A stretch of 64,000 bases of DNA from contig NZ_JBBKAR010000033.1 of assembly GCF_037722395.1 (NCBI RefSeq), forward strand, positions 433,390 through 497,389, read 5' to 3'. Each line of letters begins with the position of its first letter. Position 1 is the stretch's first letter. The notes below the pieces were generated by a model. That model had not been told where the DNA came from. It saw only the letters and a list, made by a program, of their open reading frames with translations, and did not search any database. Positions 25,373-60,700 of the stretch are shown piece by piece. Both the position numbers and the translations under genes were made by a program. Source of the DNA: Saccharibacillus sacchari (lineage in GTDB: Bacteria; Bacillota; Bacilli; Paenibacillales; Paenibacillaceae).

Positions 25373-25536
25373 TAGGGCGTGTCTTCAAACCTACCAACGT
25401 GCATCTTTTACCGCCTTTTCGTCCTGCCCTACGTCACTTTCCCTTGACGTGCCCCGGCACGCCTTCAGAAAAGTTCCTTGGTCAGCACGAAAATTCGGCA
25501 AAATCTGCTTCCGTCGAGGTTTGAAGACATGCCCTA
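25373..25536. mobile_element. MITE-like element (copy 1): ~19-bp imperfect terminal inverted repeats GGGCGTGTCTTCAAACCT / AGGTTTGAAGACATGCCC, flanked by TA on both sides
   Basis: The terminal inverted repeat is visible directly in the sequence. The element is non-coding. Its internal sequence is ~75% identical, in inverted orientation, to the element at 59839-60042. Confidence 0.7.
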
Positions 25537-25737
25537 GCGCCGGGGGCGAGCGGGTCCCTTATAGAGACACATATGATGTTGGCTAAAAGCCCCGACGAAG
25601 ATCTGTCGGGGCTTTTTTGATGGGTTTAAAAATAAAATTAGAAATTTCCGACTTTTTGCTTGTGCTTCACGCATATATGATTAGACGGATGATACGTGTT
25701 GGGGCAATCGGCGGGAGGAGGTCGGGGGAAAGTCTTG

Positions 25738-30290: not shown

Positions 30291-30321
30291 AGGAGGGAAT
30301 ATTCTGTTCGGTAAAGAAGCT

Positions 30322-30424
30322 GGGGCGCTGCGGGAGAAATTCGTTCGAGACGCTGTCTCACGCAGAAAGCCGGTGGCTTTCCGCGTTCAAAGGCGTCTCT
30401 CACTGAATTTCTCCCTCCGCTAGG
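30322..30424. repeat. dispersed repeat family 2, copy A. The hairpin core is deleted but both boundaries are shared with copy D.
   Basis: GGGGCGCTGCGGGAGAAATT…GACGCTGTCTCACGCA…CCGCGTTCAAAGGCGTCT…CCCTCCGCTAGG aligns with 53896-54037. Confidence 0.7.
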
Positions 30425-30660
30425 AGCTTCGTTTCTATAGAATATTCGGGGGAGAGAAGAGATAAGAAAGAAGAGAAGCTGTCGATTGGGCAGCTTCTCA
30501 GCGTGTCGAGAGATCCAGCTTTCTTAAAGAAAGTTGGGTTTATTTGGCGTTTCATATTTTTCACCCGGCTAAGAGGTCAAATAAGTGGTGTAGACTGGCT
30601 TGGCTTCTCGGTCCATGTGGACGACGGCTGCTTCTCTTGAGTTTTGCGCAGTATGAGCAT

Positions 30661-30765
30661 AATTCAAATCCAATCCATTTTCCGAGTGAGACAGCGTCTT
30701 GTGAAGCATTTCGAAGAAATGCACTTCGGAAGCATATGCTTATAAATTTTCTCGCAGTCTTCTCC
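30661..30765. repeat. dispersed repeat family 2, copy B (opposite orientation to A and D). It carries the 55-nt core.
   Basis: Positions 30686-30741, GTGAGACAGCGTCTTGTGAAGCATTTCGAAGAAATGCACTTCGGAAGCATATGCTT, match the reverse complement of 53920-53974 exactly. Confidence 0.75.
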
Positions 30766-31342
30766 CTTCCCCCACCTACGTGACTTTCGAGGGCAGCTTC
30801 TTTTCCATGCCCAAAAAGCGAGTCGCCATAGTTGCGCCCTGTTGGTCGGCTTTAAGATCGGGCACAATAGAAAGCAGATCCGGTGAAGGATTCGCGAATG
30901 GTCTTCCCTAGGCACGGACTTCGATGCGGTTCGGCGGTGCCGGGCGCGATGCGCTGGCGGTATACCGGAAGCAGCGTTCGCAACAGAAAAGTACTATTTG
31001 CGGGGTTCGAATCCCCACTCGCTTTAGATGCGAGCTCTTGGTTGAGCATTCTCCACTTCAAATGGAGACACAAACGAAAATCTTTGAGGACGGGAAGTTC
31101 CGCTGGCGCTGCTTACATAGGGGGCCGATATGCGAAGGTGCTTTGCGGCTTTGGTGGATGCGTCGGTGAAGGTTGGGCACAGAGGCAGAAAGAAAATACA
31201 TCGTTGTGGATTCGAAGTTGGCTTCCATATTCGGCTGTACGAATCTTTCGCTTCCCTGCGTGACTGAAGTCGGCTTAAGCCAGGCTCCGTGCATGAGCAT
31301 AGGTGAACTTCCGTCCCAAAGATTCCAAGGAGGAACTTATTC

Positions 31343-35365: not shown

Positions 35366-35520
35366 TCCATGCAAGAGGCGTTCGCTTTCGAGAAAAACCT
35401 GAATCCTATACAAATCAATCGAGATATTGAACAACCTATTTTCTGCACCAAGAAAAGAACCCGTTAGACTTTATCTTGTAGTTGTAATGTGAAAAAAGCT
35501 CTAGCAGAGGGAGAAATTCA

Positions 35521-35650
35521 GTTCAAAACGCCTTTGAACTTGGAAAACCTTCAACTCAAAATTTAATCCGGTTTTCCAAGCGAGACAGCGTTTTGTGAAG
35601 CATTTCGAAGAAATGCACTTCGGAAGCCTATGCTTGTAATTTCTCCCGCA
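35521..35650. repeat. dispersed repeat family 2, copy C (same orientation as B)
   Basis: Positions 35582-35635 differ from the core in copy B at 3 positions. The family boundary GGGCGCTGCGGGAGAAATTA is present as its reverse complement at the right end. Confidence 0.75.
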
Positions 35651-35721
35651 GCGCCCAAGCTTTCACCCAAAACAAACAGGAACTGCAATCCCCAGCCTGC
35701 GACAACTCGCAGGCTTTTCCC

Positions 35722-35768
35722 TATTGACAAAAACCATCTACACCATTATGGTTAGTTACATGACTAAC
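35722..35768 (+). promoter_or_regulatory. sigma-A promoter (TTGACA-17-TATGGT) with an overlapping palindromic candidate GntR operator GTTAGT-tacatg-ACTAAC
   Basis: These are read directly from the sequence. They lie immediately upstream of the YtrA-like GntR gene. Confidence 0.55.
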
Positions 35769-38043: not shown

Positions 38044-38080
38044 TTGTGCAAAAGCAAATGCTTTTGCACTTTTTCTTTTT
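38044..38080 (+). terminator. rho-independent terminator (GTGCAAAAGC-aaat-GCTTTTGCAC + T-run)
   Basis: A perfect 10-bp stem followed by TTTTTCTTTTT. Confidence 0.8.
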
Positions 38081-38097
38081 CCTTCTCCTTTTTATGC

Positions 38098-38124
38098 TAA
38101 ATTTTCTGCTGATTATGTCGATAA
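38098..38124 (+). promoter_or_regulatory. candidate SigD-type promoter (TAAA-N15-GTCGATAA) upstream of the first chemoreceptor gene
   Basis: It matches the Bacillus SigD consensus TAAA-N15-GCCGATAT at 6 of 8 positions in the -10 element. Chemoreceptor genes are commonly SigD-dependent. Confidence 0.45.
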
Positions 38125-38240
38125 ATATCGAAACAAAGCATGCTTTTCCTTTTCGAGTGGCGCGAATGCCTTCAAGGGTTGTCGTGATAATGGATAGGTA
38201 TTTGCTTAGGCAGATTGGCACAATCAAGGGGGTCATTGGA

Positions 38241-40220
38241 ATGAATTTGAAAATGAAATTGGCTATTTTGTTGGTAGTCGTGACCCTTTTGGGTACGGGC
38301 AGCATTAGCATCGCGGCGCTGAGCAGCATGAGAAATGAAGCCGAAGAGTCAATCAGCGATAACTTGCGGAGTACGGCTGAAAATACAGCAGAGCAAATCG
38401 GAGGCTGGGTTGGCAAAAATGCAAAAGTCGTGGAGACAACGGCTCAAATCATTGAGTCTTCAGTCCCTTTGGATCAAATCAAAGAAAGCCAGCTTCAAGC
38501 TTATACAGCTGAATCCAACAAAAACAATTTGTCCGATATCTACGTGGGGATGGAAGACGGGCGTATGATCGACGGCTCCGGCTGGGTTCCGGAAGCGGGA
38601 TACGATGTCAAAGTGCGTCCATGGTATACGGAAGGAAAAGCAGCGAATGCGCTGAACTTCAGCAATCCTTACCTGGACATGATCAGCGGCGATTACGCCG
38701 TCTCGATCGGGTATCCGCTGCATGAAGCCGACGGTACTTTTGCCGGGGTGGTCGCGGGCGATATGAAGCTGTCCACGTTGACGGATACGATCAACAACAT
38801 CAAGATCGACGGCGGGTTCGCGTTTATGACGGATAAAACAGGCGTTGTACTTGCTCACCCCGATGCGGATGACGTCAATAAACCGCTAAAAGAAATCGCC
38901 GATTATTCGGGCATCGCCGATCAGATCCTGCAAGGCGGAGATTCCGGCAGCTTGACGTACACGTACAAAGGCGAACCGCAATTGCTTTATTATCAAAAGG
39001 TGGACGGTACAGGCTGGTTTGTAGCCGCTTCGGTATCCAAAAGCTATGCGTTTGCCGAATACGTGCACATGCGTAATCTGTTTATCGGCGGCATTATCGG
39101 TCTTGCCGTTTTGTTGGGAGCTTTGGCCGTATTCGCCGCCGCTCGCCTGATCAAACCGCTGATTCTGCTGCAAAAAAGCGCGCAAAGCATGGCCGAAGGC
39201 GATCTGACGGTTAGCGTCGACGTTAAAGGCAAAGACGAAATCGGCAAGCTCGGCACGGCGTTCAACGAAATGTCGGCGAGCCTGCGTGAACTGATCCATG
39301 CGGCGGCAGGTTCGGCGGAAGGCGTGGAAAACTCGGCTAAATACATGCACGGTCAAGCCGAAGGCGCGAAGCATATCTCGGATCAAATCGCGGTCGTCAT
39401 CGAAGAATTGGCGAAAGGCGCAACGGATCAAGCGTCCTCGATCCAAACAGGAGTCGAGCAACTGGGCGATATGAACGAGTCGATCGAAGCGATCGCGAGC
39501 AGTGCAGGTCTGGCCGCATCCAGCGCAGACGAAGTAACCGAAGCGATGAAAGGCGGCCTGGAAGCCGTGGCTTCGCAAGGCGATCTGACCGAAGCAAGCC
39601 GCAGCTCGGCGGGACGCGTGGAAGAAGCCAACCGCCGCCTCGGCGATCAGACTGTGAAGATCGGCGAAGCCGTTAGTCTGATTCACACCGTGGCGAAACA
39701 AACCAACTTGCTTGCGCTGAACGCGGCGATCGAAGCGGCGCGTGCAGGCGAGCATGGCAAAGGCTTCAGCGTTGTCGCGGACGAAGTGCGCAAGCTGGCG
39801 GAACAGACCCGCGCTTCGGCGGCGGATATCGATACGCTTCTGGCAGGCGTGCAGGAAGCCGGTCGTCAAAGCATTGATGAAATCCAGGAATTCCAGGCAA
39901 CCGTGGATAAACAGATCGAAGCGGCAGCCTCTACGCGCGGAGCGTTCGACGTCATTCGCGGCTTGGTCGATGGCATTACGAGCCGGATTCGCGAAGTGTC
40001 TATCGCATCGGACGAGCTGAAGCACAGCGCGGATCATGTTTCTTCGATCATGACCGATATCGCGGCGGTAGCGGAGCAAAGCGCAGCGAGCACGGAAGAA
40101 GCGGCATCTTCGACGCAAGAGCAGGCTCAGGCCATTTCCAGCATTTCCGATCTCTCGGGCGAAGTGTCCGTGAGCGCCGATGAACTGCGCGCGAGAATCG
40201 CCAAGTTCAAAACGGAATGA
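38241..40220 (+). CDS. methyl-accepting chemotaxis protein (dCache_1 sensor + HAMP + MCP signalling domain), paralog 1
   Basis: A transmembrane segment is followed by a periplasmic double-Cache domain, a second transmembrane segment, HAMP and the conserved MCP signalling domain. The start is taken at MNLKMK… after a ribosome-binding site AAGGGGG. Confidence 0.9.
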
Positions 40221-40271
40221 ATAAACGCATCAGCATCGGATCTATCTTGATTATCAAGGGAGGCGTCTGGG

Positions 40272-42257
40272 ATGAACCTGAAAATGAAGTTGGCCGCACT
40301 ATTGGTCGTCGTAACGTTGGTTGGCACGGGAAGTATCAGTATCGCGGCACTCAGCAGCATGAAAAACGAAGCGGAAGAATCGATCAGTGACAGCTTGCGC
40401 GCGACGGCCACCAACACGTCCGAGCAAATCGGCGGTTGGGTCGCGGCCAATGCCAAACTGGTCGAAACGACCGCGCTGACGCTTCAGGCTTCCGTTCCGC
40501 TGGATCAAATCCAGGTTAAACATCTTCAAGCATTCCAAGCCGATTCGAACAAAGACAAGATCGGCGATATGTACGTCGGCCTGGAAAGCGGCAAATTGGT
40601 CGACGGGCTGGACTGGAAACCGGGCGCGGACTACGTATTGAAAGAACGGCCGTGGTACGTAGAAGCCAAAGCGGCCAACGCGTTGAACTTCAGCAATCCG
40701 TATCTCGATGCGGCCAGCAAGCAATATGCCGTCTCGATCGGGTATCCGCTTCGCGATTCGTCCGGCAATTTTGCCGGCGTGCTGGCCGGCGATATGCGGT
40801 TGTCCAAGCTTACGGAAACGATTAACAATATCAAGGTCGACGGCGGATTCGCGTTTATGACCGATAAAACGGGTGTCGTTCTGGCGCACCCGGATGCGGA
40901 CGACGTGAACAAACCGTTGAGCGAGATCGCCGATTATGCGGGCATCGCGAGCCAACTGCTGCAAGGCGATTCGGGCAGTCTGGAATACACGTACAAAGGC
41001 GAACCTCAGCTTCTGTACTATCAAAAAGTCGAAGGAACAGGTTGGGTGGTCGCCGCTTCCGTTTCTAAAAGCTATGCGTTTGCCGAATACGTGCAAATGC
41101 GCAACCTGTTTATCGGAGGCATTCTGCTGCTCGCCGTGCTGCTGACCGTCGTGGCGGTATTCGCCGCAGCCCGTCTGATCAAACCGCTGATCCTGCTGCA
41201 AAAAAGCGCGCAAAGCATGTCCGAAGGCGATCTGACGGTTAGCGTGGATGTGAAAGGCAAAGACGAAATCGGCAAGCTCGGCACGGCGTTCAACGAAATG
41301 TCGGCGAGCCTGCGTGAACTGATCCATGCGGCGGCCGGTTCTGCCGAAGGGGTAGAAAATTCGGCCAAATACATGCACGGTCAAGCCGAAGGCGCGAAGC
41401 ATATCTCGGATCAAATCGCGGTCGTCATCGAAGAACTGGCAAAAGGCGCAACGGATCAAGCGTCCTCGATCCAAACAGGAGTCGAGCAACTGGGCGATAT
41501 GAACGAATCGATCGAAGCGATCGCTAATAGCGCGGGCCTTGCCGCATCTAGCGCGGACGAAGTAACCGAAGCGATGAAAGGCGGCCTGGAAGCCGTGGCT
41601 TCGCAAGGCGATTTAACCGAAGCCAGCCGTAGTTCTGCGGGACGCGTGGAAGAAGCCAACCGCCGCCTCGGCGATCAGACGGTGAAGATCGGCGAGGCTG
41701 TTAGCCTGATTCATACGGTTGCCAAGCAAACGAATCTATTGGCGCTGAACGCGGCGATCGAAGCGGCGCGTGCAGGCGAGCATGGCAAAGGCTTCAGCGT
41801 GGTCGCGGACGAAGTACGCAAGCTGGCGGAACAGACCCGCGCTTCGGCGGCGGATATCGATACGCTTCTGGCAGGCGTGCAGGAAGCCGGTCGTCAAAGC
41901 ATTGATGAAATCCAGGAATTCCAGGCAACCGTGGATAAACAGATCGAAGCGGCAGCCTCTACGCGCGGAGCGTTCGACGTCATTCGCGGCTCGGTCGATG
42001 GCATTACGAGCCGGATTCGCGAAGTGTCTATCGCATCGGACGAGCTGAAACACAGCGCGGATCATGTTTCTTCGATCATGACCGATATCGCGGCCGTTGC
42101 GGAGCAAAGCGCAGCGAGCACGGAAGAAGCGGCATCTTCGACGCAAGAGCAGGCTCAGGCCATTTCCAGCATTTCCGATCTCTCGGGCGAAGTGTCCGTG
42201 AGCGCCGATGAACTGCGCGCGAGAATCGCGAAGTTCAAAACGGAAGAATCGGCATAA
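40272..42257 (+). CDS. methyl-accepting chemotaxis protein, paralog 2 (tandem duplicate)
   Basis: Same architecture as paralog 1. The C-terminal ~350 aa are identical to paralog 1, and the final ~450 nt are almost identical at nucleotide level. Confidence 0.9.
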
Positions 42258-53783: not shown

Positions 53784-53895
53784 ATGTAAGCCTCCTGTCT
53801 AAAAGTCTTCTTCTTTAATATTACCCATAGTTACGTTTCTGAACAGAGTTAGCAGGGGGAAAATCGAGGGAATTTGATTTAGGGCGGGCTCAATG

Positions 53896-54037
53896 GGGGG
53901 CGCTGCGGGGAAAATTACCAGCATATGCTTCCGAAGTGCATTTCTTCGAAATGCTTCACAAGACGCTGTCTCACGCAAAAAGCTTTCAGCTTTCCGCGTT
54001 CAAAGGCGTCTGGACCTGAATTTTCCCCTCCGCTGGC
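53896..54037. repeat. dispersed repeat family 2, copy D (the most complete copy), between two YtxH-like genes
   Basis: It contains the 55-nt core (53920-53974). It shares the left boundary GGGGCGCTGCGGGGAAAATT and the right module GACGCTGTCTCACGCA…CCGCGTTCAAAGGCGTCT…CCCCTCCGCTGG with copy A. Confidence 0.75.
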
Positions 54038-54132
54038 ATTGAGCCGGATCGAATTTCTCGATTGACGGGAAGGGGACAGTTTCGCTTCTTGCTTCAAGCA
54101 AAAAGACGCTCCGAGGAGGAGCGCCCAATTGT

Positions 54133-59838: not shown

Positions 59839-60042
59839 CTAGGGCGTGTTTGAAAACTCCGAAGGAAGCAGATTTTGCCGAATTTTCGTTTGCAACAAGG
59901 AAGGGTTTCGCAGTCGTGCCGGGGCACGTCAAGAAACCGTGACGCGGCGTCGCCGGAACCGTACGCGCTTTAGGCACGGTTCCGGTAGCGGGCGAAAAGA
60001 CGGTAAAAGATGTACGTCGCCCAAGTTTTCAAACACGCCCTA
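59839..60042. mobile_element. MITE-like element (copy 2), same family as 25373-25536, inserted directly next to the CRISPR trailer-end repeat
   Basis: A perfect 19-bp terminal inverted repeat TAGGGCGTGTTTGAAAACT / AGTTTTCAAACACGCCCTA is flanked by TA. Its interior aligns with the reverse complement of copy 1 and carries an extra ~40-nt hairpin insert. Confidence 0.7.
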
Positions 60043-60069
60043 ATTGTAACCAATCGTATTCAAGGTTGT

Positions 60070-60700
60070 GTTTCAATGCGCGCTCCCGCATGAGGAGCGA
60101 CAAGAGGTTTGCCCGCTGTGCGCTGCAAATCCAGGGTTTCAATCCACGCTCCCGCATGAGGAGCGACGGCAGCGCGTTCCGCTACCCAGGGCGCAACAGT
60201 GCGTTTCAATCCACGCTCCCGCATGAGGAGCGACGATCGCGCGCATCGGTTTGACGATTGCAGGCTGGTTTCAATCCACGCTCCCGCATGAAGAGCGACA
60301 AGCACATGGTAGATCCGGTAAACCTCGATCTCCCGTTTCAATCCACGCTCCCGCATGAAGAGCGACTTTGCAGTGTTCTGCACCAGCTGCTACTACACCA
60401 GTGTTTCAATCCACGCTCCCGCATGAAGAGCGACCGTCTGGAATCTTACGATAATGTCTTACAGATAGGTTTCAATCCACGCTCCCGCATGAAGAGCGAC
60501 CTATGCAGGATGCCAGCAGCTCCAACTATTATGTGTTTCAATCCACGCTCCCGCATGAAGAGCGACTTACAATGTTGGTGGGGTTTGGCAGCCTTGGAGC
60601 GTTTCAATCCACGCTCCCGCATGAAGAGCGACTAGAGACTCGATATTTTTACCCTCTCTATAAAGGCTGTTTCAATCCACGCTCCCGCATGAAGAGCGAC
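60070..60700 (-). CRISPR. CRISPR array with 10 repeats and 9 spacers (33-36 nt); the 32-nt repeat resembles type I-C. It is likely transcribed on the minus strand, with the leader at 60701-~60880.
   Basis: Plus-strand repeat GTTTCAATCCACGCTCCCGCATGAAGAGCGAC. Its reverse complement GTCGCTCTTCATGCGGGAGCGTGGATTGAAAC has the GTCGC…GTGGATTGAAAC shape of subtype I-C repeats. The seven rightmost repeats are identical. The three leftmost carry 1, 1 and 3 substitutions, which marks the degenerate trailer end. Confidence 0.9.

Follow-up and report, generated by a model that had tools for sequence, protein, structure and literature searches.

The question raised by this locus is what kind of element is represented by four short, hairpin-forming intergenic sequences, copies A to D, that recur within 64,000 nucleotides of Saccharibacillus DNA (the window, meaning this whole stretch). 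A preliminary description of the window had assigned them to an unannotated dispersed repeat family with a near-identical 55-nt core, the conservation of which was attributed either to recent mobility, as of a miniature transposable element with inverted repeats (MITE) or a repetitive extragenic palindromic (REP) element, or to selection as a small RNA or protein-binding site. Our analysis indicates that the four copies are probably members of a genus-specific, non-autonomous, non-coding mosaic MITE family that targets terminators. Insertion at intrinsic terminators, duplication of the terminator hairpin by one of two arm types, the L-form (19–26 bp, in two filled/empty site pairs), turnover of modules and inversion were all observed. 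A profile hidden Markov model (HMM) trained on 48 family members gave exactly four matches and nothing else in the 64 kb: copy C at 35497–35662 (minus strand, E = 4.5e-51), copy D at 53894–54037 (plus strand, E = 6e-44), copy B at 30657–30769 (minus strand, E = 1.5e-31, covering model positions 2–115 only) and copy A at 30322–30425 (plus strand, E = 3.4e-18), in close agreement with the positions proposed before. An exact 35-mer (GCTTCCGAAGTGCATTTCTTCGAAATGCTTCACAA), for which shuffles give an expectation of 0, was identical across the core-bearing copies B, C and D (30699–30733, minus strand; 35593–35627, minus strand; 53927–53961, plus strand). All four copies are intergenic by predicted genes, and their alignment bore out that a 55-nt stretch is the same in B and D with 3 differences in C, and that copy A has both boundary modules and lacks the core. 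These boundary modules are real and are inverted repeats of each other (GCTGCGGGGAAAATT / AATTTTCCCCTCCGC in D), but the length of about 100–145 bp given for the modular element was too short: since complementary outer arms extend beyond the modules, the copies really measure about 150–200 nt.

The family extends well beyond the window. The exact core 27-mer was scanned against one genome per prokaryotic species and gave 74 exact matches in 72 blocks, all of them in Saccharibacillus: 40 in S. sacchari DSM 19268, where they were scattered over 0.6–5.8 Mb of scaffold, 33 in S. endophyticus CCM 8702 and 1 in Saccharibacillus sp. JS10. Because these genome blocks were selected on the exact core, the uniformity of the 27-mer among them is partly built in, and they cannot be used to measure how frequent the core is. 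A second sample was therefore made up of metagenome contigs picked by the backbone pattern TTCAAAGGCG-N6-ACTGAATTTC (120 loci, 895 kb), which contained 174 elements, 42 with and 132 without the core (core in about 24%, core-less elements about three times commoner); the exact 27-mer was found in 29 of the 42 cores. The proposed family of MITE or REP kind thus has many further genomic copies, and we estimate, by extrapolation and not by counting, about 10^2 elements per genome. Judging from these searches, the family is confined to Saccharibacillus. No match was obtained in plasmids, phages and viral contigs searched with the core, the backbone and whole elements, and no known Rfam family was matched, either by the window at gathering thresholds or at permissive thresholds by copy D and one L-form copy, which gave only chance-level matches (E at least 0.67). 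In the searchable literature on Saccharibacillus repeats and Paenibacillus MITEs we found no account of the family, which is previously undescribed; by its nature it belongs with MITE-like mosaic repeats and does not constitute a new class of RNA. At one S. sacchari locus (L068:2414–4111; L-numbers denote the sampled loci, which are genome blocks of Saccharibacillus or metagenome contigs), an MgtE gene and a stretch of N stand between two elements whose left flanks are identical; the repeat seems to have misled the scaffolding here, so that the 40 S. sacchari matches may include one that is spurious.

Read in register, the copies form a long imperfect palindrome of about 94–260 nt that contains no gene. 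The modules follow each other in the order outer arm, inner repeat (TGCGRGAGAAATT), optional core, AAGACGC-TGTCTCAC, variable hairpin, GTTCAAAG-GCGTCTT, an optional module of about 45 nt termed M7, TCACTGAATTTCTCYCTCCG and outer arm. The two arm types are the L-form (TCGAGAAAGTYAC...GGAAGCGAGAAGAC) and the S-form (GAAAGNCCTRTTCG...GAAGCTTGGGCGC); the arms are complementary within each subfamily, and the inner terminal inverted repeat (TIR; TGCGRGAGAAATT / AATTTCTCYCTCCG), which was 95% Watson-Crick paired over the 48 copies, tracks the arm type by reading GAGAG/CTCTC or GGGAG/CTCCC. In the window, A, C and D are S-forms and B is an L-form whose right half is gone. At least 5 sequence classes of the variable hairpin can be told apart, and in a third type of backbone TCGGTCGCGTGTTGAA takes the place of the first loop and the core stands on the 3' side and not on the 5' side. 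The sequence of copies without the core is always AAATT-CGTT-CAAGACGC, and in core-bearing copies a 42-nt module replaces CGTT. Given the core-less majority and the constant junction, copy A, in which a clean deletion of the core had been seen, is the commoner allelic form and not a private deletion, the core being an optional module that, at one and the same orthologous element, some close relatives have and others lack. Within this module the hairpin GCATTTC-N3-GAAATGC is real (in D 7 bp, GCATTTC-TTC-GAAATGC), but its supposed neighbour CTTC-N-GAAG, the second of two adjacent perfect hairpins in the preliminary description, was rejected, as it would have a loop of 1 nt and is absent from the predicted fold; the core alone was no more stable than shuffles (z of -0.9 and -1.3). 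Copy D as a whole folds as one long hairpin with three inner branches (-47.6 kcal/mol on the plus strand; -55.1 kcal/mol on the minus strand, z = -3.6), built on nested inverted repeats (53902–53916/54019–54033, 53887–53895/54037–54045 and ATCGAGGGAATTTGAT/ATCGAATTTCTCGAT). Its central domain has a stem AAGACGC/GCGTCT(G) around a conserved 8x8 internal loop (TGTCTCAC / GTTCAAAG), inside which sits the variable hairpin GCAAAAAGC-TTTCA-GCTTTCCGC, and both central-domain helices (helices 5 and 6) covary over the 48 copies. Coding potential was considered and rejected: a minus-strand GGAGG...GTG resembling a ribosome-binding site is missing in D, and variants in hairpin length break any reading frame. 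Variant cores with the compensatory pair GCCTTTC...GAAAGGC in place of GCATTTC...GAAATGC were seen at L050:1101–1185 and L067:4551–4724, one of them within an 85-nt minimal element made up of terminal repeats and core only, which implies that the core has diverged subfamilies missed by the exact-match scan.

Evidence for mobility came from comparing the flanks of every element with all other loci, which yielded three informative site pairs. A core-less L-form insert of 189 nt in the metagenome locus L082 is missing from S. sacchari L009; the empty site carries a single terminator (AAGAGCCTTCCCGTCAAGGAAAGGCT), and in L082 a hairpin of about 26 bp stands on both sides of the insert, with the A-rich context kept outside on the left hairpin copy and the T-tract outside on the right one. 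Likewise, a 19-nt hairpin is directly duplicated around an L-form insert in the comparison of L086 with L119. The third pair concerns an S-form, inserted a few nucleotides past the T-tract of a terminator in L148 and not present in L014 (flanks 94–98% identical), and here the duplication is short, about 3–4 bp (CRT[T/C]), uncertain by about 3 nt. Target-site duplications thus exist in the family, which combines a size under about 300 bp, the lack of coding capacity, TIRs, dispersed copies and filled versus empty target duplication, all features of MITEs. For 34 L-forms, the likeness of the two flanks of a copy was set against that of mismatched flanks, whose 99th percentile was exceeded by 13 copies under scoring as inverted repeats and by 10 under scoring as direct repeats. 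The loops of the duplicated hairpins were mutually inverted in about half of the cases. Comparison of L014 with L148 also revealed an L-form element that, together with its 7-nt spacers, is inverted between the copies of its duplicated hairpin, which shows that palindromic duplicates allow flipping; such flipping may explain the inverted loops. Two further comparisons were set aside, L019/L044, which is a partial internal deletion and not an empty site, and L046/L136, which is not a clean filled/empty pair. As to the window, S. alkalitolerans and assembly GCA_037032925 both lack copy D at their orthologous ytxH junction, where a terminator is directly followed by the conserved promoter region. 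The absence of the element is all that these two sites show, since the intergenic DNA is too diverged for a target duplication of D to be read from them.

The association with terminators was also evident from the position and orientation of the elements. Convergent intergenic regions were enriched (37 of 87 elements versus 71 of 336 in the background) and divergent ones depleted (5 of 87 versus 63 of 336). In pairs less than 700 nt apart, which include some orthologous duplicates, the right ends faced each other in 39 of 39 cases (15/15 in the genome sample and the window, 24/24 in the metagenome sample), and each of the 14 pairs inspected in the genome sample and the window, A–B among them, had a terminator-like hairpin between its two members. 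For isolated full-length elements (n = 84), a strong hairpin lay past the right end in 46 and past the left end in 15, the flanking terminators being mostly directed away from the element. In the window, A, B and D follow this rule and C is an exception, with its left end 8 nt from the hairpin at 35694–35715. This polarity suggests that insertion is oriented by the hairpin. Relative to the sign of the GC skew, 30 elements had the same and 37 the opposite orientation, so that no replication-strand bias was apparent; this rules out a strand-specific model working on single-stranded DNA (IS200/IS605-like or REP-like), which predicts such a bias.

Copies A, B and C are old. The window is collinear with blocks of S. 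endophyticus and S. sacchari at 80–88% nucleotide identity, and its DNA would represent a third species beside S. endophyticus CCM 8702 and S. sacchari DSM 19268. Copies A, B and C occupy orthologous positions in S. endophyticus, and C does so in S. sacchari as well (for C, L045 with a different hairpin class and L039, respectively). The flanking genes there are only about 83% identical to their orthologues, and no alignment is possible for the DNA that separates A from B. A (CTACAC)n microsatellite (L039:6730–6800) abuts the S. sacchari orthologue of C. No two paralogues were identical, the best pair reaching 95.7%, which is about the same as for orthologues between the two close species. The identity of the core in the window therefore does not point to recent jumping, contrary to one of the causes first considered, and indicates homogenisation, selection, or both. 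Modules differed at one and the same site among S. sacchari, S. endophyticus and their metagenome relatives, with flanks 87–98% identical: the core was present or absent at L008/L056, at both elements of L009/L016, at L023/L156 and at L172/L135/L194; M7 was present or absent at L004/L035 and between copy A and its L049 orthologue, which has it; and the hairpin class was swapped at L039/L045 and between L172 and L135/L194. The state found instead always matched the other allelic form in its standard sequence, and gene conversion, a templated exchange from copy to copy, is therefore the simplest cause that we can infer.

In the reading that we consider probable, transposition would be catalysed in trans by a putative transposase, perhaps one like that of IS1630 (IS30 family), which would target and duplicate inverted repeats, and the two arm types would perhaps be served by two enzymes or by two modes of cutting. 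Uniformity of the core would have arisen by gene conversion among copies, perhaps together with selection as the binding site of a mobilising or host protein, and not by recent spread; effects on host genes, such as hairpins at 3' ends or insulation of a terminator from the next promoter, would, if any, be a by-product. Several observations weigh against this interpretation. A target duplication could be demonstrated for none of the four window copies. The partner was sought in about 1.5 Mb of Saccharibacillus DNA (about 10% of two genomes plus metagenome fragments), in which no pairs of TIRs 0.4–4 kb apart, no autonomous element with matching ends and, by tblastn of the Escherichia coli IS30 transposase (InsI1) on all sampled loci, no match were found. 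Among ten genes checked between neighbouring elements there was one transposase, in L051, and this DDE enzyme was rejected as a partner because it is IS4/IS5-like and has its own unrelated inverted repeats. The strict orientation of right ends towards hairpins is not explained by any step shown, and the inversion of hairpin loops is not predicted by simple fill-in duplication and needs a secondary flip. The lack of identical paralogues, together with the fact that most sites examined are common to S. sacchari and S. endophyticus, implies that transposition is rare or extinct. Finally, strong conservation at orthologous sites between species about 83% identical, next to intergenic DNA that cannot be aligned, would also fit a selected function. 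At the L051 locus itself, a (GCTTGCT)n microsatellite (L051:4000–4058) abuts the element and is followed by the IS4/IS5-like insertion sequence (L051:4061–5426, DDE_Tnp_1).

A more specific form of the proposal, which is possible but rather doubtful, is that transposition in Bacillota can be directed to terminators by an enzyme that recognises the extruded terminator hairpin, cuts at both of its bases and duplicates the whole of it, in the manner of IS1630 in Mycoplasma, so that the element would end up between palindromic repeats and could later flip; the 42-nt core, which on one strand has a C-GAA-G triloop, would then be a separately exchangeable protein-binding hairpin kept uniform across species by selection and not by drift.

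Among the alternatives, the one that fares best is that the copies are a selected cis-acting RNA structure, at mRNA 3' ends or as a small RNA, that stabilises, processes or terminates transcripts, so that they were recruited and are not selfish; we regard it as unlikely. In its favour, besides the retention of A, B and C at orthologous sites in the diverged surroundings described above, the stems covary extensively. Over the 48 copies, 87% of the cells in the proposed helices were paired, compared with 81% in shuffles and at most 55% with slid partners, and 33 pairs had changes on both sides, as in the terminal repeat (AU:22/GC:22 and GC:24/AU:22) and the variable hairpin (UA:31/CG:9/GC:7). 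The stems thus carry compensatory changes. Covariation can, however, be mimicked by quasi-palindrome template-switch correction or by gene conversion, and the inner helices were at least 86% Watson-Crick paired (95% in the inner TIR and 93% in the variable hairpin), with wobble rare on both strands (G-T versus A-C 11 to 8, 3 to 5 and 6 to 14) and in excess on neither. Position speaks for an RNA in part, as many copies are enclosed by a stop codon on one side and a terminator facing outward on the other (31 of 69 with the terminator at the right, 20 of 69 at the left) and isolated elements in tandem gene contexts are biased 25 to 9 in orientation; yet elements commonly stand either way round with respect to the upstream gene, the members of a pair always mirror each other, D and B stand downstream of terminators, and D is missing from the same operon junction in other species. 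Whole modules, even the most conserved one, were moreover gained or lost at the same site between close relatives, and no relative was found in Rfam. The occurrence of copies in both orientations to transcription and both inside and outside transcription units, together with covarying pairs that are almost purely Watson-Crick, thus disfavours the small-RNA reading, and an RNA role is possible for copies within 3' untranslated regions. The symmetry of the wobble pairs, the mixed orientation and the turnover of modules fit a complementarity that is kept at the level of DNA, which could be maintained by the need of one enzyme for identical ends, by quasi-palindrome correction or by gene conversion.

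Considerably less probable still is that a host DNA-binding protein, nucleoid-associated or regulatory, binds at the core and at the conserved internal loop, the repeats being kept as a dispersed set of its sites. In line with such a role, the core is conserved in sequence and not just in structure, the same 35-mer being found in the three core-bearing copies of the window as well as in the consensus for two other species; the motif TTTC-TTC-GAAA is common to the core and to M7, in which it forms a second such hairpin; and the unpaired loops TGTCTCAC and GTTCAAAGG were invariant or nearly so in the 48 copies. Set against this, the core occurs in only about one quarter of the elements and varies in presence at the same site between close relatives, divergent regions, which contain promoters, are avoided, no candidate protein was found, and the uniformity of the 27-mer stems in part from the exact-match search in the genome sample, the proportion elsewhere being the 29 of 42 given above. 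That the copies belong to no family and are alike by chance or through a local segmental duplication, as the few copies visible in one window might have suggested, can be dismissed, because 0 matches are expected in shuffles and 74 plus 174 dispersed copies were found in several organisms.

The family we propose is best compared with known bacterial repeats. MITEs such as Correia of Neisseria and bcr1 of the Bacillus cereus group make short, fixed target duplications (TA, TTTAT and the like) and have a single architecture. The Saccharibacillus elements resemble them in being small, non-coding and intergenic, in having TIRs that fold into hairpins, in their tens to hundreds of copies within a narrow taxon and in their target duplications; they differ in that the L-form duplicates a terminator hairpin of 19–26 bp and in having optional modules and two arm types. 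To our knowledge, IS1630 in Mycoplasma is the only other element known to duplicate inverted-repeat targets, which makes the family a lead towards transposases with hairpin-duplicating behaviour outside that genus. The IS1630 element of Mycoplasma fermentans, a member of the IS30 family, makes 19–26-bp duplications of inverted repeats, 16–26 bp in strain M64 (PMC2853133, PMC3317919), and the title of Calcutt et al. (1999) states that it inserts at and duplicates inverted repeats. The hairpin duplications of the L-forms are equal in range, a likeness that concerns the target duplication. In contrast to the gene-free Saccharibacillus elements, IS1630 is autonomous (1.2–1.4 kb), with a transposase and 27-bp inverted repeats. 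Among palindromic repeats, the REP units of enterobacteria are 20–40 nt long and need RAYT transposases, whereas the BOX elements found in Streptococcus pneumoniae are without long terminal inverted repeats. Bacterial interspersed mosaic elements built from REP units and BOX elements share with the present family the combination of optional modules, alternating palindromic units and a preference for gene 3' ends and convergent regions; the family has no sequence relation to either, and its filled and empty sites point to cut-and-paste or copy-in of a whole unit. REPIN-RAYT systems are similar in their recurrent inverted doublets, hairpin-forming units and concerted evolution within a genome. 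The pair members in Saccharibacillus, however, often belong to different subfamilies with locus-specific host terminators between them, which implies that the inverted doublet is not the mobile unit, and they have no replication-strand bias. The combination of whole-terminator duplication, invertibility, a strict tail-to-tail layout and exchange of modules at fixed sites is unusual and makes the family a handy system provided by nature for work on the targeting of palindromic repeats, on their homogenisation and on the way they are tolerated beside terminators. In Saccharibacillus genomes the family also runs the risk of being mistaken for small-RNA genes or regulatory sites, and it breaks short-read assemblies, as is seen from the sole public contig with the exact ytxH protein of the window (L073, Logan SRR28399031_346), which ends inside copy D (positions 1–30, with the inner repeat at 13).

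Table 1. Positions of the repeat copies, their modules and adjacent hairpins in the window; the limits of whole copies are approximate.
Feature	Position	Strand	Basis
Copy A, complete core-less S-form	30297..30447	+	HMM and inverted repeats
Host hairpin GAGAAGCTG-N9-CAGCTTCTC between the right ends of A and B	30470..30500	.	Sequence and fold of the A–B gap
Copy B, L-form with core, right half (right TIR and arm) lost	30657..30794	-	HMM and left arm CTCGAAAGTCACGTAGGTGGGGGAAGGGAGAAGAC
Copy C, complete S-form with core and long central hairpin	35487..35686	-	HMM, inverted repeats and orthologues
Copy D, complete S-form with core and short central hairpin	53861..54062	+	HMM and nested inverted repeats
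Optional 42-nt core module of D, ACCAGCATATGCTTCCGAAGTGCATTTCTTCGAAATGCTTCA	53917..53958	+	Exact 35-mer; orthologous comparison of forms with and without core
Central domain of D	53960..54012	+	Inverted repeat 53961–53984/53988–54011
Intrinsic-terminator-like hairpin of the small ytxH-like gene	54104..54126	-	Terminator scan

With regard to the genes around the copies, copy A begins 7 nt past the stop codon of a DUF4253 gene, and B likewise follows that gene. The inverted repeats of A are 30327–30342/30405–30420, 30313–30321/30425–30433 and 30297–30305/30439–30447, and an intact orthologue of the truncated copy B is found in S. endophyticus (L049:983–1227). A and B are arranged tail-to-tail around the hairpins at 30470–30560, the host hairpin of Table 1 being followed by a second one at about 30530–30552. 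Copy C lies between the 3' region of a beta-lactamase/SLH gene and a GntR-type operon, upstream of a promoter-like site of the latter (35724–35752). Copy D is placed between the terminator of the small ytxH-like gene, with its right end about 36 nt past the T-tract of the terminator-like hairpin, and the promoter region of the 211-aa ytxH gene. Immediately next to D, which lies upstream of it, the sequence CTCTGTTCAGAAACG-N-TATGGGTAATA (53800–53842, minus strand) precedes the 211-aa ytxH gene and is kept in three Saccharibacillus species (L074, L075); we take it to resemble a promoter of the sigma-B type (GTTTAA-N12-15-GGGTAT).

The window contains other repeats that are separate from the family. 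A CRISPR array at 60056–60700 comprises at least 10 repeats of 32 nt (GTTTCAATCCACGCTCCCGCATGAAGAGCGAC) with a period of 65–68 nt, the first units being slightly different (GAGGAGCGAC); the repeat is presumably of type I-C. Directly upstream of the array, at the place expected for a leader, is one of two copies of a second, unrelated repeat family of about 190–210 nt with its own terminal inverted repeats (CTAGGGCGTGTTTGAAAAC...GTTTTCAAACACGCCCTA); these copies (59839–60042 and about 25390–25570) lie on opposite strands and are about 78% identical. A tandem duplication at 38046–42257 comprises two adjacent paralogues of about 2 kb (724 and 661 aa) with 69–83% DNA identity.

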